Assembly: GCA_012730045.1 (NCBI GenBank)
Contig: JAAYBR010000002.1
Span: forward strand, 28,911 to 92,910
Length of the DNA: 64,000 nucleotides
Direction of reading: 5' to 3'
Origin: Candidatus Hydrogenedentota bacterium
Lineage (GTDB): Bacteria; Hydrogenedentota; Hydrogenedentia; Hydrogenedentales; CAITNO01
The notes beneath the pieces were generated by a model. That model did not search any database, had not been told where the DNA came from, and saw only the letters and a list, made by a program, of their open reading frames with translations. Below, piece by piece: positions 9,101 through 62,299 of this stretch. Every line of letters starts with the position of its first letter. Within the stretch, counting starts at the first letter, position 1. The position numbers and the translations under genes are program-made.

Positions 9101-10948
9101 GCCGTCCAGTTCGGGAATCTTCGGCGTGTCGGTCCCCGTGTAGGAGTTGGCGGCCGTGAGCAGCGCCGGATTCGCCGTGGTGCCCTGCACCACCGACGCG
9201 CCGCCCGTCGTGTCAAAGAGCGGCTTGTTGGCGCTGTGCGCCGTCACGTTCATGTTGGAAATCCAGGTGAACCGGCCATTGTGCTCCGGCGCGTTGTCGG
9301 CGACATTGAGCGCCTTCACCAGCCGGCCGCCCGCGAGCACCACCGACCCCATCACTTTGGCCATGCCGGGCGTGCCGTAGCCCGCCGCGCCGCCGTTGCC
9401 GCCGTTGCCGCCCTTGCCGCCCGCGCCGCCCAGGCCGCCCGCGCCGCCGGAACCGCCGTCACCGCCCCGGGTGCCGCCATTGGTCGCACCCGTGCCACCC
9501 GCACCACCGGCGTAGCCTGAACCGCCCGCACCGCCGGATTGTCCCGTGGCACCCGGGCCACCGTTCGTCTGTCGCGTCGCGGCGCTCACGTCAAACGTGC
9601 TGCCGCTGATGTTCAGCAGGCCCTGAGCGGCCAGCACAAACGCACCGCCGCCGCTGGCACCTGTTGCACCACCTGCGCCGGAGCCGCCGGTACCGCCGGA
9701 GCCGCCCGCGCCGCCCGGCCCGCCGGTACCGAAGGTGCCGCCATTGATGCCGGACCCGTTCGCGCCCCTTCGGGTGTCAGGACTTGGAATGACCGCATTG
9801 GCTCCGGCGAGGGCCGTGTTGCCGCCCATGGCAGGAGCACCCGAACCCTGGACCGCGCCGGAGGAACCCCCGCCGCCGCCCGCGCCGCCGCCGCCGCCCG
9901 CACCGCCGCCGGACGCGCCGCCTGCACCGCCACCACCACCACCGCCACCGCGCACAACAATAGCTGTTGAACCACCGCTTCCACCGCCGCCGCCACCGCC
10001 CGCGCCGCTGCCGCCGGATGCTCCGCCGCCGCCCGCGCCACCCGCACCACCACCACCACCGCCGCCGCCATGCCCGGCCGCCAATGTCAGATCATCTGCA
10101 GGCGCGGTGAATGCGGGCGTCCCGCCCCCACCGCCGACACCCCCGTCTCCACCCGGATTGCCAATGTTGCCTGTATACCCGGCGGCACCCGTACCGCCCG
10201 CCGACCCGTTGCCGCCAATAATCCCGCCACTGCTCCCGCCGCCACCGCCATTACCGCCCGCAACCGCGCCGCCACCGGTCCCCACGGAACCAACAACCCC
10301 ACTTCCACCGCCACTCCCGGCGGTTCCACGGGATGCATATCCCAACGAACCGCTATTGCCATTCAGTCCGGGCTGGCCAGCAAGTCCGCCCGCTCCGGCA
10401 GTGCCGTCAGCACCCTGCAAACCCGCCGACCCATCCGTTCCGCCAGCGTAGACCCCGCTGCCGCCCGCGCCGCCCGCACCGCCCGCGCCGCCCGCACCAC
10501 CCGAGCCGCCAACACCGCCGGCGCCGCCCGCGCCGCCCGTGCCGCCCGTGCCGCCGCCCAGCGTGCCTGCGGGAACAAACAGGTGGGGGCCCCACAAGAT
10601 GTCGCCGGTGGCGGTGATGGACAGAGGTCTCGACCCCGTCACGTTCACGGAAACGCTGGCGCCCACCGTCAAATTGGCGAAGGGAAAGACGGCGACGCCG
10701 TCAATCTCCACGCCGGTCTTGGACTGCGCGCCCCATTGCATGATGAGCGTGTCGGTGTTGATGTTGAGCGCGCCCGCAGTGACCGTCCAGTCGCCCAGCG
10801 ACCCGTCGCTGCCGTAGATGGCCTGGGCCTGCGCGGTGCCCGCCAGGACACACGCGGCGGCCACGAGGAGGACCGCCAGAGGCGCCAGTGAGGTCCGGGG
10901 CACACCCCTGACCTGTGAACGGAAGAAAGATACGATTACGCCTGACAT
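6125..10948 (-). CDS. large secreted surface protein (1607 aa): signal peptide, roughly 400-aa Gly-rich low-complexity region, at least 8 Ig-like (I-set-type) domains, C-terminal hydrophobic helix plus RRRRG anchor
   Basis: N-terminal signal (…LAVLLVAAACVLAGTAQA). Long (GGxGGxGGA)n tracts. Recurrent Ig-like motifs (…ADEGLYECLVTD…, …VGDYFCRVTSADG…, …AGTYWCVVTDDRG…). C-terminus …GLGGLAAAAAGLALAGTAALRRRRG. Confidence 0.8.
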   Translation of the reverse strand: MSGVIVSFFRSQVRGVPRTSLAPLAVLLVAAACVLAGTAQAQAIYGSDGSLGDWTVTAGALNINTDTLIMQWGAQSKTGVEIDGVAVFPFANLTVGASVSVNVTGSRPLSITATGDILWGPHLFVPAGTLGGGTGGTGGAGGAGGVGGSGGAGGAGGAGGAGGSGVYAGGTDGSAGLQGADGTAGAGGLAGQPGLNGNSGSLGYASRGTAGSGGGSGVVGSVGTGGGAVAGGNGGGGGSSGGIIGGNGSAGGTGAAGYTGNIGNPGGDGGVGGGGGTPAFTAPADDLTLAAGHGGGGGGGGAGGAGGGGASGGSGAGGGGGGGSGGSTAIVVRGGGGGGGGAGGASGGGAGGGGGAGGGGGSSGAVQGSGAPAMGGNTALAGANAVIPSPDTRRGANGSGINGGTFGTGGPGGAGGSGGTGGSGAGGATGASGGGAFVLAAQGLLNISGSTFDVSAATRQTNGGPGATGQSGGAGGSGYAGGAGGTGATNGGTRGGDGGSGGAGGLGGAGGKGGNGGNGGAAGYGTPGMAKVMGSVVLAGGRLVKALNVADNAPEHNGRFTWISNMNVTAHSANKPLFDTTGGASVVQGTTANPALLTAANSYTGTDTPKIPELDGGPAAAGWLKAAFWNKVQVDALLPDNGQMRACVLRQPPAANYSVYEGHDQLVVKNTSLQPMDNVAVVVGSNPPVLINGAGGAPGVLPAGRVWTTTVPAGVFALAVRLPQVQPETLTANVEGPAQFSVLAGDFPGLVYQWRHDGIDLSDGAKYAGAATAILTISDCVNADEGLYECLVTDPSAGGASFLLSGGVLTVSDPALLTQPVSQVVDPLAVVEFAVTTAGTVNAIQWFKDGAPLADGTTPEGTVITGSTAETLVLTGVRDADEGVYVCTLTGPDGDLSSNPATLTVNNVPVIATMPLSQNVPVGGNFTLEVGLSGGTPVFDYMWVKEGQPGEEILLRLTTGAAVSNSILLPLSGTGALLSDAGRYRVKIRNSASRAINTTGDPDNDWVNSDWAQITVYEPILVVAHPVSSAVRYGDTATLICSVVGSLPGLQMTWLDEEDQEVTGVNPRASVDTQGTLSTLTITAAENADEPPTWPAGGYRCRISNDYQSGANAVFSNRADLNVLDPAITMQPQSQIASLNGSATFSVGAVGSALSYEWFKDGGATVLSTTDTLVVSPVTEAEVGDYFCRVTSADGAVDSAMANLRISDPYIVGHPASVIVDPGEPVTFTVTVGDLSTLPIGYQWKLNGVALTGPGAAGTLAAAPLVIEYNIASAAQADVGVYTCELDGTDGIVVSNPATLALNLAPEVSGITPNPSDGVAPFGSPATLTVQVSGGTPPFTYLWTKDGAPIAEGNVTGITEPVLSFTNVQAANEGLYRCTVTNTAGSDYAERNLYAGQLITFIQHPQARRAYYDDSVFFQVVVGGGKGTRSFQWKRQRAGVVTNVGVNSPVLTLNNLSVNNAGTYWCVVTDDRGAYPSNEATLTLAARLAFTQTIPAEDTAIFGKDYLLRVRTTGGHDPVFFEWQFNGVPVAPTATLPNGSDLQLTNVAFEDAGTYVLTAFDSYTDTLTAQCELTVAYGTPVAGLGGLAAAAAGLALAGTAALRRRRG

Positions 10949-22113: not shown

Positions 22114-22322
22114 GAAGAGGGCGCGGCAAGCGGCGCCCCTACATGCCCGTACCCTGGGCATGCGCGAAACACCGGGTCATCCTCCCGCAGGGGCGCTGCT
22201 TGCCGTGCCCTGTGCGCATGCCAAATACCCGGTCGCTCGCCCGTAGGGGCGCTGCTTGCCGCGCCCTGTGTGCATGACAAATACCCGGTCACTCGCCCGT
22301 AGGGGCGCTGCTTGCCGCGCCC
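22114..22322. repeat. REP/MITE-like palindromic element, family 1: one full copy plus two tandem 62-bp partial units
   Basis: Core AGAGGGCGCGGCAAGC(A/G)GCGCCCCTAC and its inverted partner flank a roughly 50-bp centre. The same element occurs at 27854..27952 and, inverted, at 63217..63318. Confidence 0.6.
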
Positions 22323-33071: not shown

Positions 33072-35062
33072 CCCGGTTCGCGGCCCAACCAAGGAGACGG
33101 ACCGTGCTGGTGACGACCTGCCTTTCGATTTTCTGCGCCCTTTCGGCGCCGGGGGCCCCGGAGGACGCGCGCGCCGCGGAGGCGCGGCACACGGACACGG
33201 TGTTTGAGATGACGGAATTTGCGGACAGGGCGGCCTGGGAGGCCTTTGCGGACCGCCTGCGGAAGCGCATCCTGCTGTCCTCGGGCCTGGTGCCCATGCC
33301 GCCGGAGACCCCGCTGAACGCGAAGATCACCGGCCGGGTGGAGCGGGACGAATACACCGTGGAGAAGGTGTGCTTCGAGGTGCGGCCCGGCTTCTTTGCC
33401 ACGGGAAACCTCTACCGCCCGAAGGGGGGCGGCCCCTTCCCCGCCGTGGTCAACCCCCACGGCCACTGGGAAAAGGGGCGCCTGGAGGATTCTGAGCGGG
33501 GTTCCGTGCCCGCGCGCTGCATCACCCTGGCGCGCATGGGCGCGGTGGCGTTCGCCTACGACATGATCGGCTATGTGGACAGCCGGCAGTTCGTCCACAA
33601 CTGGGGCCGCGACCAGGAGAAACTCTGGGGCGTCCACCCCTTCGCCCTCCAGCTGCTCACGAGCCTGCGCGCGGTGGACTTCGTGCTGTCCCTGCCGGAG
33701 GTGGACCCCGGCCGCATCGGCTGCACGGGCGCCTCGGGCGGCGGCACGCAGACCTTCGCGCTGACGGCCGTTGACCCGCGCGTGAAGGCGGCGGCCCCGG
33801 TCAATATGATCTCGTCCATCATGCAGGGCGGATGCCTCTGCGAGAACGCCCCGCTCATCCGCCTGGAAAACTCGAACATGGAGGTCGGCGCGCTGGCCGC
33901 GCCCCGGCCCCTCATGATGGTCTCCGCCACCGGCGACTGGACCAAGAACACGCCGCAGGTGGAGTTCCCCGCCATCCGAAGTGTCTACGCCCTGTACGGC
34001 GCGGAGGACAAGGTGGAGAACGTCCATCTCGACTTCGAACACAACTACAACCGGCCAAGCCGCGAGGCGGTGTACCGGTTCTTAGGGAAGCACCTCATCG
34101 GCGGGCGCGACTGGTCGGATTTCACCGAACCCCCGTATCAGAAGGAACCCGACGAGGCGCTGCGCGTGTTCCCGGGCGAGGGACCGCTGCCGGACGCGAA
34201 GCAGCGGGCGGAAATCATTGAAGACCTCGTCGCCATGCAGAAGGAGAAGTGGGCGGCGGTACTCCCGAAGGACACGGCGGGCGTGGACGCCTTCCGGCGG
34301 GACTACGGCTTCGTGCTTCCCGGCGTGACGGGCGCCGAAGCGCCCGCGCCTGAAGGCCTGCGCTGTGAGAAGACGGCCACGGAAACCCTCGGCGGCTTCA
34401 CCGCCGAGCGGTGGGTGCTGGGCCGCGCGGGAAAGGGCGACGCGGTGAGCGCGGTGCTCTTCCTCCCGCAGAACGCGGGGACCGCCGAGGCGGTGCTGCT
34501 GGCGCACGGAAGCGGCAAGGCCGCCCTGCTTGACCCCAAGACCGGCGGGCCGGGAGAACTGGCCGCCGCGCTCCTCAAGCGCGGGGCCGCGGTGCTGTGC
34601 GCCGACCTTTTCCTGCAGGGCGACGGCGCGCCGAAGGAGCGCGGGGAGTCCGGCAAGTTCCCGGACACCTTCAAGCCGACGGACACGGCGGAGCGGGTGC
34701 AGGACATTCTGACCGCCGCGGCCTTCCTGCGGGGGCCCGCGGGGCTCGATGTGGCCGCCGCGGCCGGCCTGGAGGACGCGGGCCTGTGGTGCCTGCTGGC
34801 GGCCGCGATGGACCCCGCAGTCGGGCGCGTGTTCGCCGACCTGAACGGGTTCGCCCTGGACGATGACGACGCCTGGGCGGCGCGCCACTACATCCCGTGC
34901 ATCCGCAGCGTGGGCGATGTCCGCACGGCCCTGGCCCTGGTCGCGCCGCGCCCGTGCCTGCTGGCCGGCGTCAACACGGCGGAGGCGCCCGCCCTGACCT
35001 GGCTGGGCGCGGAGACGGCCGGGGACACCGGAGCCGGCACCCTGGCGAAATGGCTGAGATAA
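33050..35062 (+). CDS. secreted alpha/beta-hydrolase (acetyl-xylan-esterase/dienelactone-hydrolase-like N-terminal domain) with a roughly 300-aa C-terminal extension; start codon uncertain
   Basis: Signal-like …VLVTTCLSIFCALSAPGAPEDARA; nucleophile elbow GCTGASGGG. The start could be the GTG at about 33104. Confidence 0.65.
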   Translation: MPGRGRLTRFAAQPRRRTVLVTTCLSIFCALSAPGAPEDARAAEARHTDTVFEMTEFADRAAWEAFADRLRKRILLSSGLVPMPPETPLNAKITGRVERDEYTVEKVCFEVRPGFFATGNLYRPKGGGPFPAVVNPHGHWEKGRLEDSERGSVPARCITLARMGAVAFAYDMIGYVDSRQFVHNWGRDQEKLWGVHPFALQLLTSLRAVDFVLSLPEVDPGRIGCTGASGGGTQTFALTAVDPRVKAAAPVNMISSIMQGGCLCENAPLIRLENSNMEVGALAAPRPLMMVSATGDWTKNTPQVEFPAIRSVYALYGAEDKVENVHLDFEHNYNRPSREAVYRFLGKHLIGGRDWSDFTEPPYQKEPDEALRVFPGEGPLPDAKQRAEIIEDLVAMQKEKWAAVLPKDTAGVDAFRRDYGFVLPGVTGAEAPAPEGLRCEKTATETLGGFTAERWVLGRAGKGDAVSAVLFLPQNAGTAEAVLLAHGSGKAALLDPKTGGPGELAAALLKRGAAVLCADLFLQGDGAPKERGESGKFPDTFKPTDTAERVQDILTAAAFLRGPAGLDVAAAAGLEDAGLWCLLAAAMDPAVGRVFADLNGFALDDDDAWAARHYIPCIRSVGDVRTALALVAPRPCLLAGVNTAEAPALTWLGAETAGDTGAGTLAKWLR

Positions 35063-35946
35063 TGACCCCGGAGGACGCGTCCGGCGACCGGGTGGTCCAC
35101 GCCACGGATCCGCATTTCTGGCGCGTGACCCTGAACCCCGCCCGGCTCGCGGGGAAGCGCGCCCTGGGCATGGCCAATCTGGTCCTGCGGCGGCGCCGGC
35201 ACCTCCGGACGGACCTGGCGGAGATCTTCGCGCGGGAGATCGCGGCAACGGGCGCCGGGACGGTCATCATCAGCGGTGACCTCACAACGACCTCGCTGGA
35301 GGCGGAGTTCGCCGCGGCGCGGGCGTTTCTGGACAGGCTGGCCTCCCTGGGACCGCGAATCCTCGTCATTCCCGGAAACCATGACGTGTACACCTTCTCC
35401 TCGGCCCGACGCCGCCTCTTTGAGCGTTTCCTGGGAGACTACCTGCCCGCACCGGAGCTGCCCGCGCGGGTCCTCCTGCCCCGGGGAGCGCCGGTGGTCT
35501 TCTATCCGGGAACAGGGCCCAACGTCATCACGTCGCGCGGCCGCATGGACCGTGCGGTCATCGAGCGGACGGCGGCGCTGGTCGCGGACGCGCCCGCCGG
35601 CCGCCCCGTGCTGCTGGTGGGGCACTATCCCCTGCTCCCGCAGACGGAGGCCTACCGGGAGGCATGGTCCCACCGGCTGCCCCGCGCCCGGGAACTCCGG
35701 GCGGCCCTGGCCGCCACGGGACGGACCCTCCTGTGCGCCGCGGGACATGTGCACCGGTTCTCGCTGGTCAGGGATCCGGAGCACCCCGTCCTCTTCCATC
35801 TCACGACGCAACCGCTTTTCATGCGCAGCGCGGCGCACGCGGGCGCGTTCTCTGTCCTCCGCTGCTCCCCTGCCGGGTTCGAGGTGAGCCGCTGCACCCG
35901 CCGGGACGATGCCTGGCACGAGTCCCCCCTCCCCGCCTTCCCCTGA
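35050..35946 (+). CDS. calcineurin-like metallophosphoesterase
   Basis: …VIISGDLT… …VIPGNHD… …GHYPL… …GHVHR… metal-ligand motifs; overlaps the upstream stop by 13 nt. Confidence 0.75.
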   Translation: MAEIMTPEDASGDRVVHATDPHFWRVTLNPARLAGKRALGMANLVLRRRRHLRTDLAEIFAREIAATGAGTVIISGDLTTTSLEAEFAAARAFLDRLASLGPRILVIPGNHDVYTFSSARRRLFERFLGDYLPAPELPARVLLPRGAPVVFYPGTGPNVITSRGRMDRAVIERTAALVADAPAGRPVLLVGHYPLLPQTEAYREAWSHRLPRARELRAALAATGRTLLCAAGHVHRFSLVRDPEHPVLFHLTTQPLFMRSAAHAGAFSVLRCSPAGFEVSRCTRRDDAWHESPLPAFP

Positions 35947-36021
35947 CCTCCCCACCCCCTTCACCGAATCGGAACAAAAAAAAGCCCTCCGGCGGTGTCG
36001 CCGAAGGGCTGGAAGGTTTTT

Positions 36022-36580
36022 AGTGAGATGCCGGCAGGGGGCGGCCGGCATCTCCGGTAAGGTGCGTTGCCCCGCCGGGGAGGCGGGGCGTCACAGAGGA
36101 GAACGGATAAGACCAGTGGAGATGCCGGCAGGGGGCGGCCGGCATCCCCGGTGAGGTGCGTTGCCCCGCCGGGGAGGCGGGGCGTCACAGAGGAGAACGG
36201 ATAAGACCAGTGGGAATGCCGGCAGGGGGCGGCCGGCATCCCCGGTGAGGTGCGTTGCCCCGCCGGGGAGGCGGGGCGTCACAGAGGAGAACGGATAAGA
36301 CCAGTGGGAATGCCGACAGGGGGCGGCCGACATCCCCGGTGAGGTGCGTTGCTCCGCCGGGGAGGCGGAGCGTCACAGAGGAGAACGGATAAGACCAGTG
36401 GAGATGTCGGCAGGGGGCGGCCGACATCCCCGGTGAGGTGCGTTGCCCCGCCGGGGAGGCGGGGCGTCACAGAGGAGAACGGATAAGACCAGTGGAGATG
36501 CCGGCAGGGGGCGGCCGGCATCCCCGGTGAGGTGCGTTGCTCCGCCGGGGAGGCGGAGCATCACAGAGGAGAACGGATAA
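36022..36580. repeat. tandem array of a 94-bp repeat (5.9 near-identical copies) with a further diverged partial copy at about 36672-36770
   Basis: Period of 94 bp read directly from the sequence. Each unit carries two GC-rich hairpins (GATGCCGGC-AGGGGGCG-GCCGGCATC and CCCCGCC-GGGGAG-GGCGGGG). Units 4 and 6 carry a paired C>T / G>A change that keeps the second stem intact. Confidence 0.9.
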
Positions 36581-36786
36581 ACCGTCCAAGCCGGAACCGG
36601 GCTCCGGCCTTCCGCGCGGCACCCATCCCCGCCAATCGGCAGGGGAACACGCGGAGATACATGTGAATGAATTCGGGAGATGCCGGCAGGGGGCGGCCGG
36701 CATCTCGGGGTGAGGTGCGTGCCCTGACTGGCGTCAGGGCGGGTAGAGGACTTGCGTCCTCTGTCTTGGGGGCAAAACTCTTTCTC

Positions 36787-37863
36787 TCACCTAAAGAGGC
36801 GAAAACGCAACACCAGAAGAAGCGCCGCACCCGCCACCAGCACGCCTGCTATCAGGCCGCCGCGCATCCCGCGGGAGGGTGTCCCGCGGCCCGTGGCCGG
36901 TGTCCCGGCTTCTCCGGAGAATGTATGTGTGACCGTGTCTCCGTTAGCACGTCGTTCAATTGTCAAAGAGCGCGGCGCGTCTTCCACGCGCCCCATATCC
37001 AAGTCTTCCCGCGCCGCAGTGTCTCCCGCGGCAACCGTCGGACCGGTTTCGGGAACGCCTTCGCCCGCGAGGCGGCTTTCGCCCGCCTGCTCTCTTAGAG
37101 CGGCAACGGCGTCCCGCATTTCTGCGCCTGATGTGGGAACGGGTCCGGCGTCCGGGCCGTCGGCGGCCTTCTCGGGGACCTCCCGCCCTTCTGAGGGCGC
37201 AACCGGCACTGCCGCCACGCCTTCCCCGGCCAGGGTGGTCAGCCGCCCCGGTTGGACTCCGTTGGACGGTTTGTCTTCCGGGTCGGCGGGAACGGGCGGC
37301 TCCTCGGGCGTTTCACCCTCCGGAGTGTCCTCCCCTTCTTCGGTGTCTTCCCGTTCTGGCAGGGACACTGCAACCGCCCCCCCCTCAGAGGGGAGCGCCT
37401 TGCCGTCCCACGAGGCCAGTGTGGGCTGCTGCACCGCGACCGTGGTCACCCCCCCGTCCTGTCCTCCAATTCGCCGCAACAGCACCACGGCAACCAGACC
37501 ATCTTCCAACGCTGTCTGGTTGAGGCCGAGGACCACCACAATGAACCTGCCCGGCTCTGCGGCGTTGGCGGTGACCACCTTGCCCGCCTGCAGGGCGGCC
37601 GGTCCCGGTTCTGCGGCGACCGGCTCAAACACGGCCGGATCGAAGACAAGATGGAAATCCAAGGCCGCCACCTGGTTCTCACTTCCGGAAAGAAGAAGGG
37701 GTACCTGACATTCCCACTCTTCAACTGTAACCGCACCCGGCTGGACACTGCCTGCCCACCCTCCGGATGCCACAGCGATAATCAGGACAAACCCGAAAAC
37801 CACTGACTCACCCACACCTCGGCTGCCCCGCTGTTTCGGGGCCACGTCCCTAGTGTATCGCAT
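36787..37863 (-). CDS. secreted cohesin-domain-like protein with acidic Pro/Glu-rich linker and C-terminal hydrophobic helix plus basic tail anchor
   Basis: Signal, cohesin-like beta-sandwich motifs (…ALDFHLVFDPAVFEPV…TANAAEPGRFIVVVLG…) and C-terminus …RGGLIAGVLVAGAALLLVLRFRLFR. Confidence 0.6.
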   Translation of the reverse strand: MRYTRDVAPKQRGSRGVGESVVFGFVLIIAVASGGWAGSVQPGAVTVEEWECQVPLLLSGSENQVAALDFHLVFDPAVFEPVAAEPGPAALQAGKVVTANAAEPGRFIVVVLGLNQTALEDGLVAVVLLRRIGGQDGGVTTVAVQQPTLASWDGKALPSEGGAVAVSLPEREDTEEGEDTPEGETPEEPPVPADPEDKPSNGVQPGRLTTLAGEGVAAVPVAPSEGREVPEKAADGPDAGPVPTSGAEMRDAVAALREQAGESRLAGEGVPETGPTVAAGDTAAREDLDMGRVEDAPRSLTIERRANGDTVTHTFSGEAGTPATGRGTPSRGMRGGLIAGVLVAGAALLLVLRFRLFR

Positions 37864-38064
37864 ATGCCTTGGGAACGCAATGGATTGAGGCCGGGTTAAC
37901 CGATGGACTAGAGACGCCATAAGTCTTTTCTCTACAAGTGGATGCATGGATGCAGAGGCGAAAAACGACCCATTGTCTCCGGGCGGGCATGACACCTTCT
38001 ACGGATGCCCGTGCGCCTTATTTGTAATCTGGATTACACAAATGAATCCCGGCACGAAGGCCGG

Positions 38065-38676
38065 CTAGTGCCCTTCATCGGCGGAAGAATCCCCCCCTTT
38101 TCTGGAAATCATCGCCTCGTTGGTTTCGGATTTCGCGTCCCCAGCGGGCGCGCCGCGCCGTCCCCCGGAGAGAAACGTGGGCATCCGCCGAAACACCTCC
38201 GCGTTGCCGCCGAGATAGTAGCGGAGAAGCAGGAAGGCCAGATAGAGCCAGAGAATGCCCTTGGACGCCAGTGTGCCCATAATTAACCAGCGGAGCACGG
38301 GCGAGGCGATCAGCACCAGATCCCGCTGCTCCTCCAGGGGGAAGGGCATGAATGCGATGAGCCCGAGCAGCCCCGCCTGCACCCCCTTGTCCCCCGCCTC
38401 CGGCCCGGAGTCCCCCCCCTCCCTGCATCGGAAGGCCACGAAGACTCCCAAGAAGGCGGACAGGGCGAGGGTGACCAGCCAGGCATTGTTGATGAGGGCA
38501 TTGATGGTGGAGACCCGGCCCGCCTCCCGCAGAAGGTCGAAGGCCGCGTCCGGCGCAAGGCCGGCGGCGAACAGGGGGATCCACGCGGCCAGCGCGGGCG
38601 CGCGCCACCAGTCGGGCGATTGCGGGTGTGTGTCCAATGCAGGCGGACTCCTTGGCCCCCGGGCGGGCCCCGTCAT
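38065..38676 (-). CDS. hypothetical integral membrane protein (about 5 TM helices; Yip1-like topology). Start uncertain
   Basis: Hydrophobicity pattern only. Confidence 0.45.
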   Translation of the reverse strand: MTGPARGPRSPPALDTHPQSPDWWRAPALAAWIPLFAAGLAPDAAFDLLREAGRVSTINALINNAWLVTLALSAFLGVFVAFRCREGGDSGPEAGDKGVQAGLLGLIAFMPFPLEEQRDLVLIASPVLRWLIMGTLASKGILWLYLAFLLLRYYLGGNAEVFRRMPTFLSGGRRGAPAGDAKSETNEAMISRKGGDSSADEGH

Positions 38677-45190: not shown

Positions 45191-48100
45191 TCACCCGCGG
45201 CCCGCGGCCCGGCGCCGCCGGCCCGCCAGTGCGAGCAGACCGGCCGCGGCCAGCATCACCGCCGCATCGGCCCAGGACGTCCCCGAAGCCGTTCCGGGGG
45301 CGCATCCGATATAGCCGAGGAACTTGTTTCTGTTGTCGTCGTTGACGTACTCAAAGCCGTCCACAAGGATGTCCTCCTTGTTCTTGGCGGCGTTGCCCAC
45401 CTTGACATCCATTTTTCCGGTCTGGGCCATGCCGCCGACGGGGAACCCGACCACGAGGCGGGTGCCGTCGGGCGATCCGCCGATGACGGGCATGAGCGTC
45501 TTCCCGAAGTAGACCTGCGCCGACTGCACATCGCCAAGGTCCTCGCCGTACAGGGTGACGGGGAACTTCTTGCGCGAGGCGCGCTTCGGGTCAACGCGCA
45601 GCACCTTCGGGCTGCGCTCGGGCGTTCCGGGCGACAGCGAGAAGAGGTCCGAACGGCTGACCTCCTGCCCAGTGGCCGTGTTCCGGACGAGGAGCACGAT
45701 GGGCTCCACGGGCGGATCGTCGGACCGCGAGCTGACGGACAGGCTGATGGTGGTGTTCGTGGCGCCGGTCACGACGACGTCGTAGCCGCTCATGACCACC
45801 ACGGGCCGCGTGCCGAAGTTCTGGCCGTAGATCACGAAGCGGAACGGCTCGCCGGGCAGCGTCTGCGAGGGCAGCTCGGCCTGCGACACCGAGTCAATGG
45901 CGATGGTGGTCGGGCCCACCACGCGCGCCCGCGCCTCGAGCACGCCGGAAAGCTGCTTCTTCATCGTGTGGGACCGGATCCAGTTGAAGCCGCTGCTGTC
46001 CGGGCGGACCCCCGCCTTGGCGCCGTCCATCCAGTAATAGGCGGGCGGCGTGCGGAAGAAGGTCACGAACCCGAGGCCGCGCTGCGCCCACTGGAACTCG
46101 CGGAACTTGCGGAAGTCGTTGCGGTCCTCGCCGGGGAGGTTGGCCCACGTGTCGGGATCGGGCTCTGTCGGGGTGTTCGGACCCCACGAGACGATGCCGG
46201 CGCGGAAGCTGTCGCCCTCCTGCATGCCCTGGGCCGCGCGGACCACGACGAAGAAATCAGGGCCGTAGTCCAGGTCGTTGATGGAGACGCCGAAGGTCGG
46301 CTGAATCCACTGGCGGTTCCGCGACTGCTGCTCGCGCGGCAGCGGCTGGTCATCCGTGCCCGGGGTCGAGAAGACGAACCGGACCTGGATGTCGTCGGCG
46401 GTCTGCCCGGTGAAACGCGGCGGCCCGTCGAGCTGGATCGGGATGTCAATGCCGGGGTCGAAGTACCCGTTGCGGTTCTCGGGATGGTTGTCGTTGTCCC
46501 GGTAGAGGGCCACGCCGCTGATCCGCTGGTCCCTGCTCAGGGGAAGCAGGTCGGTCAGCGGGTTGAAGATGGCGTTGGCGCCGTTCTGGTACAGCTCGAC
46601 GGTCAGCTCCTCGAGGAACGACGGATCGCGCACGACGCGCCAGGCGCCGTTGCGCGGCGTCCCCGCGCGCAGCGTCAGCTCGTTCGCGGAGTTTCCGAGA
46701 ATCTCGTAGGTCTCGTACCCCGAGTCCACCAGCCAGTCGCCGGCAAGGGCGCCCGGCACCCACGCCGCCGAGGGCACGCGGTACCCGGACACGAGACCGA
46801 TGCCGCCGTTGCCCGCAGCAAGGATGTCGCCAGGGCGGTTCGTGGCCAGGTCGAGCCCGAGCACGGGAACGGCCTCGCCGCCGATGTTCAGCTTGGCGTT
46901 GCGGTTGGTAAGGTCCACCATGCGGACCGGGACGTTGACTTCCAGCATGTCATGCCCGTAGAAGTCCTGGACCGGGTCCTCGTCGGGGCTCGACTTGACG
47001 AAGGCCGTGCCGCTGGTGTTGACCGAGGGGAAGAACTGGATGCCGCCGCGGCGCTGGTTGTCGGGCCGCGTGGGCAGGTTGGCGGGGATGACGGCGCGAA
47101 TCTTCGAGAAGCGCGCCACGCTGTCCGAGGTGCTGATCGAGATGAACAGGTCGTCGCCGGGCTGGAGCACCTCGGGATCGAGGGCCTTCGCGCCGGGGGC
47201 CGCCTGCTGCACCCCGTTCACCTGGAGCGCGGTGGAGACGGGGCCCGCCCCCGCCGCCTTGTTGTCGTTGGGAATCTCGAAGTCGAACTCGTACCCGTCC
47301 AGGCGCGGCACCGTCCAGTTGCTCCTGGGATACAGCGTGAGCACCCAGGCCCGGTCGGCGTCGTCCACGATGCCGTTGCCGTCCATGTCGTCCGCACGGC
47401 CGTCCCCGTCGAGGTCCACCAGTTCGGGCTGGGACGCCCACTTGACGTTGGTCACGGGGACAATCCTGTCAAGCAGGGGAAGCGCGGCGCCGCTGCCGGC
47501 GTAGTTGTTCAAGTCCTGCGTGTTGAGGAAGATGCCGTTCTGGTCGGCGTCCTCCCACAACAGCACGCCGGAATCCAAGCTCTGGTTGTCGTTGGTGTCC
47601 GGGTCAAGCGTCCGGAGCATCGCCGGGGTAAAGTCCGGTCCCCAGAAGGCAACCGTGATCTGGCTGACGGCCACCGGCTCGCCGGTCGAGGTGACAATCG
47701 GGTCGGAGGATGCGACCAGGTTCATACCCAGCATGGGCATATGCGCGCTGTTGCCGTCCACTTTCTGGGCGAGCAGACGCGCGCCCGCGTTGGCGGACCG
47801 CCACTGGCTGGCCCGCGGATACTCGCCGGGGAGCAGCTCGGCGCTCCAGGTGCTGTAGCGGGGCAGCGCGGGCTGCTGCGGCGGCACGGGGTATGCCGAG
47901 GAACGCGGCCCGACAGGCGGCGCGTCACCAAGGGTGGACAGCGGACTGAAGAACGGCACCGTCTCGTAGGCGAACTGCCCCCAGCGTCCGGTGTCATCGT
48001 AGAGGAAGTTGACCTGGAAGAGGCCGAAGTCCACCACGCGCGCGCCAAAGAGACGCCAGTCGCGCACGTCCACCGTGTGGCCGTTCTCGAACTTGATCTG

Positions 48101-51100
48101 CTCCAGACCGAAGGGGTCGAGCCACTGGTCGAAGCCGCTGAGCATGCCCACACCGATGTCCGTGTAGCCGCCCAGGGTCACGTTGTCCAGGTCCACGTTG
48201 CCCGGGTTGTACACGTCCACGCTCGGGATGTAGAAGAGGTCCGTCTGGTTGCGGTAGGGCGAGTCGGACTCGTAGGTGATGACCAGGTCATGCACGTCCA
48301 CGCCCACGCGGATAGGCTTGGCCGTTGCCTGGTTGAAGGTGCGCTGCGGCCACCAGGGCTCATATTCGCCCCAGCGCGGGTCATTCTGCCACGGGTAGAG
48401 CGCCGTCGCGCCGAGCTTGACCCCCTGCGCGGGGATCATGCTGTCCACAAACACACCGCCCTCCCAGTTGCCGGACTCGGGGTTGAAGCGCCGCGGCTCG
48501 ATGAAGGCCCGGAAATCCGCGCCGTAGGTGATGCCCTGGCCGTCCCCCGGGGCGAGGGAAATGTCGCGGAAGCCGCTGTCGGTACGCACCACCACAAAGT
48601 AGTCCGGGGACGCCTCGGCGCCGAAATTGCCCATGGGGCCTTCGGCGTAGTTGTCCGGGGTCTTCTCGAGAAATCCCTCTGTAAATCCCTTGTCATAGGC
48701 GCCGTAGTTGCCGAGCTTGCGGGTGCCGCCCCACAGGCGCAGGGAAATCTTCCACCACGGGTCTCCGCCTCCCGGCGGCAGCGGGATGTACTCCCAAGTC
48801 GGCATGAGCTCCACGCTGGAGGAGGCGTTCGCGAGCATCGGGTAATCGCCGGCGAACGTGAGCCCGCCGATGGCATTCGGCGTGGGCGCGTCAAAGACAC
48901 CGTTGTTGTTGGTGTCGTGCCACACCCAGGTGCCGTTGTAGGTCAGCTCGCGGCCGAACACCTCCTCGTTGTAGAGCGGAAGCCCCCAAAGCTGTTCGGT
49001 GATGTCCTCCAGACCCGTCCGCGGGTCGAAGCCGCCGTTGCCGGGCGCACCGTAGGGGTCGCCGCCGATGTCGGTCAGGATGACGTTGACCTCGCGGAGC
49101 TGCGCCGCGTTTTTCTCGGAAATGTCGCGTGTAATCTCCGTGTCGGCGAAATGCACCGAGTTGGTGGAGTGAGCGTTGATCCCGAGGACGGACGACCAGG
49201 AGTCCACGCCCAGGAGCTTGCGCATCTGGAGAAACTCGCCCGCCACCACGTCAAGAAGCTGGTCCGGCTTGTTCCAACGCGGACGGGAATACTCCGCCAT
49301 GGGGGTGTACAGGAAATTCGGGTGACTCCAGGCGTCATGGAAAATGGGGGCCTGCCGCCCGGAGGGGGAACCCACATAGTCGTAGACCGTGAAGGAAGAG
49401 CTGTAAAACTGCTTGTCCTCCAGAATCTCGCCATCCCAGAAGTTCGGGGAGTAACTGTCGGTGGGCAGCCCCTCCTCGTCCACCGGGTAGGTTCCCGTGC
49501 GCGGGTCAACCATCACCGCGTCCAGCACCTCGACGCCCATGGTGAGCTGGCTGCGCCAGGTGGCGGAGGAGCGCACGGCCACGATGTACGAGTTGCCGTC
49601 CGGCCGGAAGTCCTCGTTTACCTCGCCTGCAGGCACGTCAAACTGCGGACGCGCCGCCGTTCCGTTGCCGATAAAGTCGAGCTCGTAGACGATGCCGGAG
49701 TACTGCTGGAGCCCGGTGATTTCGCCCACGGGGGCGCCCAGATTGTCCCAGGTGAACATCAGCTCGTCGTATTGGGAGTCAAGGATGCCGTTGAGCGGAC
49801 CAAGCACCTCCTCGGCCTCCTCACCGGCCTTGTTCTCGATGAACAGGCCGAACTCGAGCAGGTCCGTGAAATAGGGCGCGCCCATGTTGAGGTAATTCAG
49901 GTCGTCGTTGTTCCGGCTGTCCGGGCGAACCCAGTACGTCAGGGACTTCAGCTTGCGCGGCGCGAAGTTGTCGTTCTCCTCCTCGCTTTCCCCGTAGCTC
50001 ATGGTGAACCGGAAGAGGGGCACCCAGTCGGAGAGGGGCAGCACGGACTCCCGGTCCGCGACCAGGGTGGAGAAGGAGATGTCGGCCGTCGGCTCGTCCG
50101 TCTGGCCCTCACCCTCGCCCTCGCCCTCCCCCTCGCCTTCCCCTTCACCCTCGCCCTCAGTGCCGCACCCGATGCACTCGAGCACCTCGATGTAGTTCTC
50201 CCGGGTGAACTGGCGGGTGACCAGCGCGCCGCCGTTGCAGTTGTCACGGTAAGTCACCGTCAGAACCACGTCGTAGATGCCGGGCGCGGTGTAGCGGTGC
50301 ACGGGGTTGCGCTCGGTGGACGACTGGCCGTCGCCGAAGTTCCAGTACCAGCCCACGGGCGCGAAACAGCTGTCGCCCACGGAGAGGTCCGTGAAGGTCA
50401 CCGCCAGGGCGGGCACGGGGTTCGCGGGCGTGATGTTGCCGCGCGTCGGCGTCGCCGAGAAGTCCACATACGGCGTGGCCAGTATCTCGATGTACTCGGT
50501 CTTGGTGACCGTGGTCGTCACGCCGTACTGGTTGGTCACCGCGACCGACACGGTGTAGAAGCCCGTCGCGGTGTAGATGTGGACGGGGTTGATCTCGTTC
50601 GAGGCCTGCCCGTCGCCGAAGCTCCACGCCACGCTGGCGGCCTGGTTTGCCCCGATCAGCGTGAAGGCCACGCTGCCGTTGACGATCTGCCGGCGCGGGG
50701 TGCCGGTGAAGTCCAGGGTTGCCGGCGTGGTCGCCGTGACCGTCTGGGTGAGGTTGGCCACCGGGGTGTTGGTGCGGATCCAGTTGCGCAGGGCGGCGAA
50801 GTCGGGGCCGTCCTGGCTGCGGTCCACATCGGTCCGCGGAATCACGCTCATCTTGTCCTTGTCGAAGCCCCAGTAGCGCACGGGCCGCGGCCGCTGGAAG
50901 AGGGTGATGTACCCGACGGCGCGGCTTCCCCAGGGGAACTCGGAGAAGAGGTCAAACTCATCGGCGTTCTGCCCGGGAAGGGGCGGCGAGGCCAGGCTGA
51001 CCGTGAAGTTGTCCGGGTCGGGCTCGGTGGGGGTGTTCGGGCCCCAGGACACGATGGCGGCCTGGAACTGGTCGCCCTGGTTCATGGCCGTGGCGGCGCG

Positions 51101-54100
51101 CACCACGACGAAGAAGTCGGGGCCGAAGTCCGCGTCTGTGGGCGCGGCGCCGGGGGTCATGGGCACCCACTGGCGGTTGCGCGGCTGCGAGACGTAGGGG
51201 GTCGCGTCGCGGCCGATGAAGCTGTCCGTGCCGGGGGAGGCGAAGGTCATCTTGACCTGGTACTCGGGCTCGCCGCCGACCGCGCCGATCAGCACGGGCG
51301 GGTTGTCGAGGCGGACCGGAAGGTCAATGTACTCCGTGACATTCCCCTGGGCGTCGCGGACCGGCGGGTCATACACGCCGTTGCGGTTGCCGGGGTGGAA
51401 GTCGTTGTCGCGGTAAACCGAAACGCCGCTGAAGAGCCCGTTGATCGGGTCCTCATGGTCCAGGGGCACGAGGTCGCTCACCAGGTTGAAGGCGCCGGTG
51501 CGCGCGACGTCGTAGAACTCGACCACAAGCTGCTCGAGGAAGCTCGGGTCCTTGACAACGTACCAGGCCCCGTCGGTGCGCGGGGCGCCGGCGCGCAGCG
51601 TGAGGGTGCGCCCGCCGACCGCGGTGATCTCATAGGCCTCGACGCGCGGGTGGCTCCCCTGCGAAAGGCCGATAAGGTACAGCCCGACCGCGTTGGCGGT
51701 CCAGGCCCCGGAGGCGTAATAGGACGCGTTGGCGCCGGTGATGTCGGCCTCCGTCGGGATGAAGCTGGAGGCGGTGGTCTGCGCGCCCGTACCCTGGCCG
51801 CGCGCCACGATGTTCTCCGGCCGGTTCACCGAGCAGTCCAGGCCGAGCACGGCCGACTCCGCGCCGCCGGGCTGGATGGAGCCCGTGGACGTGTCAAAGA
51901 CCAGCGTGCGCACGTTGACGGGCAGCATGTCGTGCCCGTAATAGTCCTGCAGCGGGCTTTCCTCGATGTTGTGCTTGGTCATGGTGTCCACCACGTCGTA
52001 GGCGCGCGGCATCATCTGCAGCCCCGCGAGCTTGCGGGCGTCGGGCGTGCGCGTGGGCAGGTTGGCCGGCACCACGGCGCGGAACTCCATGAAGGCCTTG
52101 GCCTGCTGGCTGGTCCGCACGACCACGAACAGGTCGGCGCCCGGGCTGCCCGCGGCGATATTGAGGGCCTTCTCGTCGGCGGCCTTCAACGCCAAGTCCA
52201 CGAAGGAGGGGGCGTCAAGCCAGTAGTCCGGCCAGTCCGCAGCATCCTTGGCGCGGTCCCCGGCGGACTTGTAGAGGCTCACTCCGGTCTCGGTGTCCTT
52301 GTAGGGGACATCCCACTTTGTGCGCGGGATCAGCGTGAGCACCCAGGCGCGGTCGGACAGGCCGTCCCACGCCGCAAGCTCCGCCGCGCTGAGCCGCGCG
52401 ACGTCGGCGGGCACCAGCGGATCGCCGTCAAACACGACACCGTCGCCGCTGAGGTCGTCCGGCAGGTAGTCGTCGTCGAGGTCTATGACCTCCGGGGCCT
52501 GCGCCCACGACAGGCTGCCCTCCGCCAGCGGCACGATCCGGTCGGTGAACGACGGGGAGGTCACCCCGCTCGTGAGGAAGGGGCCGTCGAAGACACCGTT
52601 GTTGTTGCTGTCCTCGTAGAGCAGGACGCCGGAGGTGAAGAGGGCGCCGTCCACGTCCAGGCCGGAGAGCTGGCCGGGCGTGAAGTCGGGGCCCCAGAAC
52701 GCGACCGTGGCGTTGCTGAGGCTGATGGGGCTGTAGGCGTTGACTGCGGGGTCGTCGGTGCCGGCCAGGTTGAACCCGAGCATGGCCGTGGGCAGGGTGT
52801 CCACGCCGATGTACTGCTTGAGCAGGCGGGCCGCCCACGCGTTGGAGGCGTTCAGCAGCCGCTCGGGCCGCCAGTCCTCCAGCCGCGGATACACGCTCCG
52901 GGGAAGGGTGTCCTCCACGATCATCCAGCGACCGCGTGAAACGGCGTTGCCGATGCCCACGCCGACACCGTAGGGGTAGTCCGGAACACTCAGATCGACG
53001 GGGGCCTGCGAGCGGTCAAGATAAGCGCCGTGGCCCTCGCGCAGGGTGAGCGAGTTTCCGCTGTTGCTGAGGATGTAGTACCGGCCGCCGTAGTTGTCCA
53101 CCAGCCATTTTCCCGCGAGGTCCCCCGCGAGGGGGCCGAGGTGCGGGCCGTTCACGACGAACACATAGACGTCGTCGGCGTAGGTGGCCTCCGCCCCGCT
53201 GGCGCCGGTGAGGTTGTACGGCACGTTGGCCTGGGCGCCCTCGCTGGCCAGGTAACAGAGGCTGGTGTCGCCCCAATTAATGATCGTCTGGCCGCCCTGG
53301 TACCCGGCCCAGGTGGAGTAGCGCGGAAGCGTGGGCTGGGACGGCGGATCGGGCCAGAAGGTGGACCGCGGCTCGGCCAGCTCCTCATCCAGACCGTCCC
53401 CCTCCAGCTTGAAGGGCACCGTCTCAAAGGCGTAGTGGGTCATGAGCCACTCGCCCGCGCCCCGGAAGGAGTCGAAATAGTCGGGGAACATGAACGGGTT
53501 GTGCCGGTGGAAGAAACGCAGCTCGCCCATTCCGTAGAAATCGACGAGGTCCTTCGCCTGGAAAGCGTCCCAGATGTACCGGGGGGGGCCCGACGGATAG
53601 TATTCATAACCGGGGACGTCAATGTCGTCGGTGTTAAAGAACGCCGGATCGGTCCACAGGGAGATGGCGGTGCGGCCGTTCCATTCGGCATCCAAAAAAA
53701 TTTGACGCGCTAACCCGGTGACCGGGTCAATATAACCGAAAAAGTCGAACGCGTCCAGGGACTGGCCCGCCATGGCGGGGGTCACCTTGGCCCAGCGGTT
53801 GTCCGTGGCGTAGGTCAGCACGAGATCGTGCACCTCGGCGCCGCAGCGCACCGCCTTGACCGTGTCCCGGTTGTGGCTGCGCTCGGTCCACCACCCGTAC
53901 TCGCGCTTGATCACGTAGGAGCACGGGAAGTCGGAGGGATCGCAGACGAGGTCGTTCGCGGCGGCGTTCTGCCACAACACGCCAAACGTCTCGCCGACCG
54001 TGAGCTTCTCCCGGGCCTTGTCCGGCCACGGATTAATTGGCGTGCCGTTAATCGTGATGCCGGCCAGGTATTCGGCCATCACCTTGTACTGGATGTTGAA

Positions 54101-56398: not shown

Positions 56399-56793
56399 CA
56401 CGCCACTCTCCCAGAAAGGCGTTCCCGCGCGCCGCCGCACCTGCGGTGCGCGCCGGGGGCCGCCAATGCTTCGTAACACCCTGCCGGCACCCGCCGCCGC
56501 CGAAAAACCCGGCTGCACGGCGGCGCGCACGCGCCCGGAACACAAATCCCGGACACGTCCGCTGGCATCCTTTCGTCTGCCGACCGACCTGTCATGGCAC
56601 ATTTTTCCCGTTGTCCACTCCGTTTTTATATCACAGCCGGGCCAAAGTGTCAATAGAGAAGTTGCCTGCAATTCCAAATGATGCTTGAATTTAGGTTGCC
56701 GAATGCCACGGAGCATATCGGCAGATTTCGCATTTCAGTGTAAAGTAATTCCTGTCCGCCGCGCAAAACTTCGCGCGCCCTCGCCGTAACCGC

Positions 56794-61890: not shown

Positions 61891-62103
61891 GCGGCCATTA
61901 TCCCTCTCAGGCGGTTTATGCCGGAGCCACCCCAAATACCGGCGGCGGCATACGACATATTGAACGCGTCTTGACCGGAACACATCATATTGTGCGCCGA
62001 ACCGCACCCCAAACGCAACCTGTGGGGCGGGTCCGTTACCAAGAAAATGCGCCCGGCCGGAGTCCTTCCGACAAGAGATTGCCGCGCCGGCCGGGGCGAC
62101 CGG

Positions 62104-62244
62104 CTCGCAACGACGCGGAGATTTCCGTCATGGCGAGCAAAGCGACGCCATCTCGTTCTCGCGCAGGCCAGGGCAGCCGTCTCGCAACAACGCGGAGATT
62201 TCCGTCATGGCGAGCGAAGCGACGCCATCTCGCTCCCGCGCCGG
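62104..62244. repeat. two tandem about 76-bp units of palindromic repeat family 2 (…ctcgcaacgacgcggagatttccgtcatggcgagcgaagcgacgccatctcg…)
   Basis: Direct tandem duplication read from the sequence; related copy at 20549..20608. Confidence 0.5.
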
Positions 62245-62299
62245 CCTAAAAAAGGAAACCGCCCGGACGTGAACACGCCGGGCGGCAGAATGATGATAA

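Follow-up and report, generated by a model that had tools for sequence, protein, structure and literature searches.

What is encoded in a gap between two convergent genes that is almost entirely filled with hairpin-forming tandem repeats, and on which strand is it read? The gap lies in a 64-kb stretch of a Candidatus Hydrogenedentota genome (GenBank assembly GCA_012730045.1, contig JAAYBR010000002.1), here called the window, and is bounded by a plus-strand open reading frame (ORF) ending at 35946, a metallophosphoesterase gene, and a minus-strand ORF ending at 36787, a gene for a cohesin-like anchored protein. An initial annotation had described 94-bp repeats in this gap and considered a tandem family of small structured RNAs, a cruciform or protein-binding array, and a cluster of repetitive extragenic palindromes (REPs). 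We found that the gap encodes seven sibling modules on the minus strand, a head unit of three hairpins followed by six 94-nt units that are nearly identical. The units very probably constitute a conserved, covarying two-hairpin structured RNA. By analogy with known systems, we lean towards reading the array as a co-transcribed cluster of sibling base-pairing small RNAs (sRNAs) that target G-rich Shine–Dalgarno (SD) regions.

Repeat units, relatives and covariation

Tandem Repeats Finder reported a repeat of period 94 at 36025–36580 (5.9 copies, 95% matches, no indels, score 1007); no other repeat of the window comes close to it in strength. The six near-identical 94-bp units and the diverged seventh copy described before were recovered at the same positions apart from phase, and each 94-bp unit contained two perfect inverted repeats, corresponding to the two GC-rich stem-loops already proposed. 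In a window pattern search, the 26-nt hairpin-1 core GATGCCGGCAGGGGGCGGCCGGCATC occurred seven times with up to three mismatches (starts at 36027, 36121, 36215, 36309, 36403, 36497 and 36679) and not once in 100 shuffles. The seventh copy has kept hairpin 1 and the linker, and has a different hairpin 2 and one extra hairpin. The covariance model described below detected no further copies in the rest of the window.

Copy alignment bore out the paired substitutions that had been noticed, namely GCTCCGCC/GGCGGAGC in hairpin 2 of units 4 and 6 and GATGTCGGC/GCCGACATC in hairpin 1 of unit 5. No Rfam family reached its gathering score anywhere in the window, and no tRNA or tmRNA was found there, in agreement with the view that the array is neither a tRNA nor a riboswitch. 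A coding reading was rejected, with 94 not being divisible by 3 and the units of relatives being spaced 93–167 nt apart; the 80-aa minus-strand ORFs over the array are overlapping frame-shifted copies, spurious as had been suspected.

To find relatives, the unit pattern was run against a collection with one genome per species and against metagenomes, and a covariance model was seeded with 16 units; model matches with E < 1e-5 were accepted. The model yielded 66 units, 43 of them distinct, from 18 sources, all in tandem arrays of two to eight units (loci are given L numbers below). In the genome scan, the unit was confined to four contigs of Candidatus Hydrogenedentota metagenome-assembled genomes (MAGs), with one locus per MAG among the pattern matches; of the 40 loci, the other 36, all in unrelated taxa, each matched once by chance and were not supported by the model search, and viral contigs gave no unit-pattern match. 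L006 and L017 are the two ends of one array in one MAG, with flanking proteins 78–94% identical to those of the window, an identity that assigns the window to this phylum, and in L040, a lower-GC MAG, a diverged six-unit array occupies the same position. Conservation of the unit in related genomes, which the initial annotation had named as a test, was found in these Hydrogenedentota relatives.

Part of the covariance model is already selected for by the pattern used in the search, and weaker model matches, including L075 and L088, were not accepted as members. Neither were L061 (1105–1195) and L072 (4935–5025), which scored 34.7 bits as a single unit within overlapping ORFs without a significant fold. 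These two loci carry GCACCUCACCC and, after it, a GAUGCCGGCC...GGCCGGCAUC hairpin; their context differs, and they have no C-rich loops. The match is probably an artefact of the search pattern, though it could be a distant solitary relative.

Covariation was measured on the 43 distinct units, and loop and linker motifs were counted on 42 distinct units. Standard pairs were formed by 97.7% of 768 stem cells. Double changes were present at 11 of 18 pairs, including all seven modelled pairs of hairpin 2, where pair states were, for example, CG 13 and UA 26 at one pair and UA 23 and CG 17 at another. None of 500 shuffles reached any of the observed pairing or covariation measures, and pairing fell to 34–51% when partner columns were slid by 1–3 positions. 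An independent MAFFT/RNAalifold alignment returned the same two helices with seven compensatory pairs. Hairpin 1, by sequence, was almost invariant, and its variation was mainly G·U. The proposal of a tandem family of small structured RNAs is thereby supported by cross-genome covariation and conservation, and the covariation is independent of copying between units. The compensatory change in units 4 and 6, on which the proposal had first drawn, is real and by itself says little: UA is the commonest state of that pair family-wide (26 units, with 13 CG), the two units probably share it by descent, and L006 carries a U·G intermediate at the hairpin-2 CG/UA pair.

Functional strand

The unit had initially been written on the plus strand; the array RNA is encoded on the minus strand of the window, because hairpin-1 wobbles, the family-wide G·U asymmetry, the terminators and the promoter of L053 all point that way. 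Units 3 and 4 carry uncompensated hairpin-1 changes, overlooked before, that are A·C mismatches on the plus strand and G·U wobbles on the minus strand. Across the distinct units, non-Watson–Crick stem cells comprised 53 G·U on the minus strand, against six G·U if the plus strand is read, and a hand count from the pair table of the model-free MAFFT alignment gave about 21 G·U (minus) versus 4 (plus). The single unit folded with z = -5.6 on the minus strand and z = -3.2 on the plus strand.

An intrinsic terminator, also missed earlier (hairpin at 35983–36010), stands right after the last unit on the minus strand, with 12 pairs, nine of them GC, followed by U7-GUU. In minus sense, a terminator with a T-run follows the array in most of the loci whose downstream flank is present (L017, L046, L054, L009/L060, L040/L050/L073, L053, L044 and L086), whereas the terminator scan found none on the plus strand 3' of the array. 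In L053, TTGACA-17-TATTAT (11/12 consensus) lies directly 5' of the array on the same strand. Sub-threshold Rfam matches were all on the minus strand and all to sRNAs with C-rich loops (ar14, anti-hemB and mmgR).

In 35976–36022, the terminator hairpin has A8 on one side and, after 8 nt, T5 on the other; it may also weakly end the convergent plus-strand gene (plus-strand fold z = -2.9).

Anatomy of the transcript

The array starts 24 nt past the stop codon (36789–36787) of the anchored-protein gene. Its parts, in RNA sense, are as follows.

36768–36777, minus strand: conserved 5' element, UUUUGCCCCC
36677–36762, minus strand: head unit, first in RNA order (fold z = -8.0; model match 67.4 bits)
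36745–36762, minus strand: head-unit hairpin hpX, an inverted repeat, AGAGGAC-GCAA-GUCCUCU
36721–36740, minus strand: head-unit hairpin 2', GCCCUGAC-GCCA-GUCAGGGC
36707–36720, minus strand: head-unit linker, ACGCACCUCACCCC
36677–36706, minus strand: head-unit hairpin 1, GAGAUGCCGGC-CGCCCCCU-GCCGGCAUCUC
36589–36676, minus strand: unique 88-nt spacer from head to body units (fold z = -1.2, unstructured)
36025–36588, minus strand: six 94-nt body units (Tandem Repeats Finder; model matches 100–108 bits)
36495–36588, 36401–36494, 36307–36400, 36213–36306, 36119–36212 and 36025–36118, minus strand: the body units in RNA order
Every 94 nt, minus strand: body-unit leader, CUUAUCCGUUCUCCUCUGUGAC, with an A/U-rich patch in each
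36163–36183 (representative), minus strand: hairpin 2, GCCCCGCC-UCCCC-GGCGGGGC, a covarying helix with an 8-bp stem and a C-rich loop
36150–36162 (representative), minus strand: linker, AACGCACCUCACCGGG (AACG-CACCUCACC), unpaired and nearly invariant
36118–36149 (representative), minus strand: hairpin 1, GAUGCCGGC-CGCCCCCU-GCCGGCAUC, an 11–12 bp stem of almost fixed sequence
35973–36010 (hairpin 35983–36010), minus strand: intrinsic terminator, AGCCCUUCGGCG-ACAC-CGCCGGAGGGCU then UUUUUUUGUU (fold z = -4.5)

The three-hairpin head unit is the first unit in eight arrays. The spacer that follows it (36589–36676) is kept in close relatives only, and folding detected no significant structure in the spacers between units. 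In the fold of the 816-nt transcript (z = -13), the modules are independent of one another, and CCUCACC stays single-stranded in all units in both the minimum-free-energy and the centroid structure of the whole transcript. A lower stem of 4 bp (UGUG/CGCA) under hairpin 2 was 86–89% paired without double changes and may sequester the first bases of the linker.

No U-tract follows the internal hairpins of the window array, and a sigma-70 scan of 35500–38500 gave no sigma-70-like site, including per-unit promoters. With neither an internal U-tract nor an internal sigma-70-like promoter, the anatomy is therefore that of one read-through transcript. In the two-unit arrays L044 and L086, the last hairpin 1 is the terminator hairpin, because it is directly followed by U8–U10.

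Array evolution and downstream neighbours

The family shows two evolutionary modes: old units that are conserved one by one in one lineage, and, in another, units that were amplified recently and are polymorphic in copy number. In the L040 lineage (L040, L050, L078, L081 and L090), units are 51–84% alike within an array and 81–90% identical to their positional orthologues in other genomes; each unit has thus been kept individually for a long time. In the window lineage, internal units are 96–100% alike and copy number differs among close relatives, with body plus head counts of 6+1 in the window and L054, 7+1 in L046, 4+1 in L102, 3+1 in L103 and 2+1 in L101. L054 is identical to the window, L060 is closely related to it, and L046 (336–1168) has flanks 100% identical to those of the window and one body unit duplicated. 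L046, L054 and L060 are contigs Ga0209612_1029772, Ga0209722_1023951 and Ga0116149_1003830, respectively, from anaerobic-digester or sludge samples. The contigs of L006, L009 and L017 end within the array, which breaks short-read assemblies of Hydrogenedentota MAGs.

Downstream of the array, the metallophosphoesterase gene of the window adjoins it in the window lineage only.

34897–35946, plus strand: Metallophos gene (Pfam E = 5.6e-10)

The encoded protein scored 42 bits against the NCBIfam DS9_1 anti-phage phosphoesterase model (cutoff 420) and is not a member. The L040 lineage has a different downstream neighbour: in L040 (~5269–5745, minus strand), L050, L073, L081 and L090, a conserved, promoter-like GTATATAATTGCG stands after the array terminator, and the next gene encodes a protein with a zinc ribbon (AGKYYCPKCH...CPSKRC) and a very long acidic tail, followed by a PilM-like gene.

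Upstream gene and promoter

The gene upstream of the array and its conserved end are located as follows.

36787–37995, minus strand: cohesin-like anchored-protein gene, with its likely true start at ATG 37863
36787–36813, minus strand: last eight codons and stop, GTG TTG CGT TTT CGC CTC TTT AGG TGA (alignment)

The protein has an N-terminal hydrophobic segment and a C-terminal transmembrane helix with a basic tail (...LLLVLRFRLFR*). Its match to Pfam Cohesin was weak (22.1 bits, cutoff 24.1), a PF00963 match is precomputed for P0011, and NCBIfam gave no match for the upstream protein; only 11 homologues were found in 5.8 billion sequences. Gene and array were syntenic in the window, L006, L040/L050, L046, L054, L060, L078, L086, L099 and L101–L104. 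In most arrays whose 5' end is present, the array starts no more than about 40 nt past the stop codon of the gene (16–30 nt where measured), and the pairing is kept down to 33–41% protein identity. Independently of the search pattern, all five protein-retrieved loci with at least 150 nt downstream carried the array on the strand of the gene. The upstream protein of L044 also ends in a transmembrane helix and an RRR tail. The exception is L053, where the array stands alone behind its own promoter and the ~1 kb of contig preceding it yielded no homologue of the gene.

At the 3' end of the gene, the final eight codons (VLRFRLFR) do not vary as protein and, in a homologue of ~40% identity, do not vary as DNA either, even at six-fold degenerate Leu and Arg codons. 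Within them, TTGCGT (36805–36810) aligns with the -35 box of L053 (TTGACA), and the last codons also align with its spacer. At the -10 position, L099 has TATACT and the window a poor GAGAAA. This nucleotide conservation may reflect an embedded promoter or an RNA signal, and a promoter embedded in the last codons of the gene is plausible in some lineages on the basis of the alignment. Were it real, a 5'-triphosphate transcript end would be expected near UUUGCCCC. In the window, the -10 position is poor, and therefore read-through from the gene, or another sigma factor or an activator, has to be assumed.

Exposed C-rich sites and proposed function

Each unit exposes three single-stranded, conserved and C-rich sites: the hairpin-2 loop, the linker CCUCACC and the hairpin-1 loop CCCCCU. 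The linker contains CCU[CU]AC in 40 of the 42 distinct units, with CACCUCACC exact in 30; CCCC is present in 39 hairpin-1 loops and CCC in 32 hairpin-2 loops. Unpaired conserved segments are 59% C and 11% G, and the linker shares CACCUC with the 3' tail of 16S rRNA. A crude survey, noisy in high-GC sequence and yielding examples only, found the canonical SD sequences AGGAGG, AAGGAGA and AGAGGAG ahead of several window genes.

In the reading that we prefer, the array would be transcribed with the upstream gene, or from a promoter embedded in its 3' end, and the transcript would be cut at the A/U-rich leaders into ~94-nt sRNAs, as in known sRNA clusters. The redundant C-rich sites of each module would then pair with G-rich SD regions of target mRNAs and block translation initiation in the manner established by experiment for CcsR/NfeR1-type and LhrC sRNAs, and the number of units (two to eight among relatives) would set the dosage.

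Several results weigh against this proposal. The exact linker complement GGUGAGGUG is absent from the window outside the array, its one-mismatch matches outside the array (20, against 20.75 expected) are at chance level, and the initiation region of the upstream gene has no obvious complementarity. Complementarity to SD motifs is also not specific: because the genome is 65–70% GC, an unpaired C-rich RNA complements such motifs almost by default. Processing into units is suggested purely by analogy, and no promoter for the array is recognisable in the window. Covariation in the lower stem and in hpX is slight or absent. In the stem of hairpin 1, AU, UA and GC pairs almost never vary across the distinct units; this conservation beyond the needs of pairing points to a sequence-specific partner, perhaps a protein.

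Comparison with known systems

The ar14/cuckoo family (RF02344, including CcsR1–4 and NfeR1) of Alphaproteobacteria likewise consists of sibling modules of adjacent hairpins with C-rich, anti-SD-like sequence. CcsR1–4 are cut by RNase E from the 3' untranslated region (3'UTR) of ccaF1, and a terminator follows the cluster (PMC8034643, PMC4615179). The layout of the window is similar, the CcsR cluster lying directly 3' of a protein gene, co-transcribed from its 3'UTR and closed by one terminal terminator-like hairpin (PMC4615179, PMC8034643); with its 24-nt gap, no terminator between gene and array and A/U-rich leaders, the window anatomy would be compatible with CcsR-like co-transcription and RNase E maturation. 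The ar14 feature of two to four adjacent hairpins per RNA without a multiloop is also present, with two in each body unit and three in the head. ar14 was the best sub-threshold Rfam match, on the minus strand (25.7 bits against a gathering score of 58.8), spanning hairpin 2, hairpin 1 and the terminator.

The cuckoo/CcsR family is, however, defined by CCUCCUCCC in every hairpin loop (PMC4615179), and this motif occurs in no loop of the window (UCCCC, CGCCCCCU). It was found in three of the 42 distinct hairpin-1 loops (L040, L050 and L073 variants) and in no hairpin-2 loop. Here, unlike in cuckoo, the best-conserved motif lies in the linker between the hairpins, the host belongs to Hydrogenedentota and not to Alphaproteobacteria, and arrays reach eight units that are near-identical in the window lineage. 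The DUF1127 neighbour of CcsR (CIN1 subgroup) is missing, the upstream gene having only the weak Cohesin match.

In Listeria monocytogenes, LhrC binds the SD region of lapB, which encodes a cell-wall-anchored adhesin, through three redundant sites: loop A, the stretch between the stems and the loop of the terminator (PMC4132741). Three exposed C-rich sites stand at positions equivalent to those of LhrC1–5 here (32/42, 40/42 and 39/42), a resemblance of anatomy and not homology; no sequence or Rfam similarity to LhrC was found even at E ≤ 10. The lhrC copies are generally described as carrying a promoter and a terminator each, whereas the internal units here have neither. The motif also differs (UCCC in LhrC, CCUCACC and CCCCCU here), as do the high-GC genome and the unrelated phylum.

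C-run hairpin loops that pair with G-rich ribosome-binding regions are known from 6C RNA of Actinobacteria and RsaE/RoxS of Firmicutes. These are single-copy genes, not tandem arrays as here, and neither gave an Rfam match even at E ≤ 10. RNAs of the CsrB/RsmZ type resemble the array in having many repeated hairpin modules per RNA, with valency as the functional variable. They display GGA in loops of the transcribed strand, whereas GGA-type loops occur here only on the non-transcribed (plus) strand. When the region and three diverged arrays were scanned against Rfam by E-value, every match was sub-threshold. The units constitute a new RNA family that, by analogy, would work like ar14/cuckoo, LhrC, 6C and RsaE and is a member of none of them.

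Alternative explanations

Because the sequence of hairpin 1 and of the linker is conserved beyond structural need, the main alternative is a multivalent sponge for protein or RNA. The array would then act unprocessed, either as a ~0.8 kb minus-strand RNA or within a ~2 kb mRNA as its 3'UTR. The modules would titrate an RNA-binding protein specific for the invariant sequence of hairpin 1 or the linker, or soak up many G-rich RNAs simultaneously, as a sponge or scaffold; we consider this possible but unlikely. The sequence conservation concerns the stem and loop of hairpin 1 as well as the linker, internal terminators and promoters are lacking, and the six to seven homogenised units and variable copy number of the window lineage would be expected if valency matters; CsrB and RsmZ are established multi-site protein sponges. 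No candidate protein partner is encoded beside the array, however, the adjacent conserved gene encoding a membrane-anchored surface protein and not an RNA binder. The two-unit arrays L044 and L086, ending in their own terminator hairpin, look like ordinary sRNAs, and the units of the L040 lineage, diverged from each other yet individually conserved, suit distinct target specificities better. One form of this explanation, carrying the same low probability, would be a single unprocessed multivalent RNA acting as a global SD sponge or as a scaffold for a hairpin-1-binding protein. Such an RNA would present ~21–27 exposed C-rich sites resembling the 16S tail (CACCUC) and seven invariant hairpins, units would come and go rapidly and so adjust its valency, and its production would be hard-wired to the surface-protein gene through a promoter within the last codons of that gene.

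The close spacing of gene and array in most loci (about 40 nt or less, 16–30 nt measured), the absence of a terminator between them and the persistence of their pairing down to 33–41% protein identity would also suit a cis-acting 3'UTR element, a hairpin stack that resists 3' exonucleases or tunes termination or localisation and has no function in trans. We judge this distinctly unlikely. The array of L053 stands alone behind a consensus promoter, with no gene homologue detected in the ~1 kb upstream; stabilising hairpins need no invariant unpaired sequence, yet linker and loops are the best-conserved parts; and the conserved -35-like box in the last codons of the gene suggests that the array can have its own promoter.

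An element acting as DNA, whether a cluster like REPs or bacterial interspersed mosaic elements, a cruciform or protein-binding array, or a centromere- or iteron-like array, is very unlikely, and the corresponding proposals of the initial annotation are disfavoured. Tandem, GC-rich, palindromic units would fit such an element, as would a copy number that varies between near-identical genomes (7+1 in L046, 6+1 in the window) and an array that breaks short-read assemblies (contig ends of L006, L009 and L017). The 53:6 strand asymmetry of G·U over A·C has no explanation at the level of DNA, though; the array is one locus in 64 kb and, among the pattern matches, one per MAG, where REPs would be dispersed; covariation in the stems goes with an unpaired linker that does not vary; and a promoter and a terminator bracket the array as a transcription unit.

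Transcription from the plus strand, for example into a CsrB/RsmZ-like sponge that shows GGA or GGGGA loops to a CsrA-type protein, is extremely unlikely. The hairpins are close enough to palindromes to form on either strand, and the plus strand would offer GGGGA, GGAGGAA and AGGGGGCG loops and the linker GGUGAGGUG. Against this, 53 stem cells would become A·C mismatches (six the other way), the minus strand and not the plus strand has a terminator after the array in most loci with downstream flank, the only clear promoter (L053) points in the opposite direction, and the plus fold is weaker (z = -3.2).

A type III toxin–antitoxin antitoxin RNA (ToxI-like) or a degenerate CRISPR (clustered regularly interspaced short palindromic repeats) array is effectively refuted: tandem RNA repeats followed by a terminator, and in the L040 lineage by a same-strand gene, recall the former, but the next gene is the convergent metallophosphoesterase in the window and in L040 the zinc-ribbon/acidic-tail gene, which has its own promoter and does not encode a ToxN/AbiQ-like endoribonuclease, and unique spacers are absent from the array, as was seen at the outset, the whole 94-bp unit running head to tail at 95% identity.

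Other repeats and ORFs of the window

A second tandem repeat at 22184–22322 (56 bp × 2.5 copies, 93%) has a hairpin of the GGGGCGC...GCGCCCC type in each unit and a related inverted piece at ~22120–22145; it does not match the model of the 94-bp unit and is unrelated. A third, at 62082–62246 (77 bp × 2.1 copies, 87%), contains a GGAGAT...GCCATCTC hairpin and is followed at ~62249–62290 by an A-run and a GC hairpin resembling a minus-strand terminator. The very long minus-strand ORFs 45191–56716 (3841 aa) and 6125–10948 (1607 aa) have internal 9–27 bp CCG-rich repeats and overlap equally long ORFs on the opposite strand, as is typical for high-GC sequence.

Significance

Neither Rfam 15 nor a loosely targeted literature search contained a regulatory RNA described for Candidatus Hydrogenedentota. 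If our reading is true, the array would represent a first and well-supported sRNA family in this almost uncultured phylum, with a covariance model ready for use. By analogy with CcsR and LhrC, it looks like an independent, convergent invention of a cluster of sibling sRNAs with C-rich loops on the 3' end of an mRNA, and such convergence, if true, would be a further argument for regarding the design as a general solution. With its two evolutionary modes, the family would offer a natural system for how sibling sRNAs arise and diverge.

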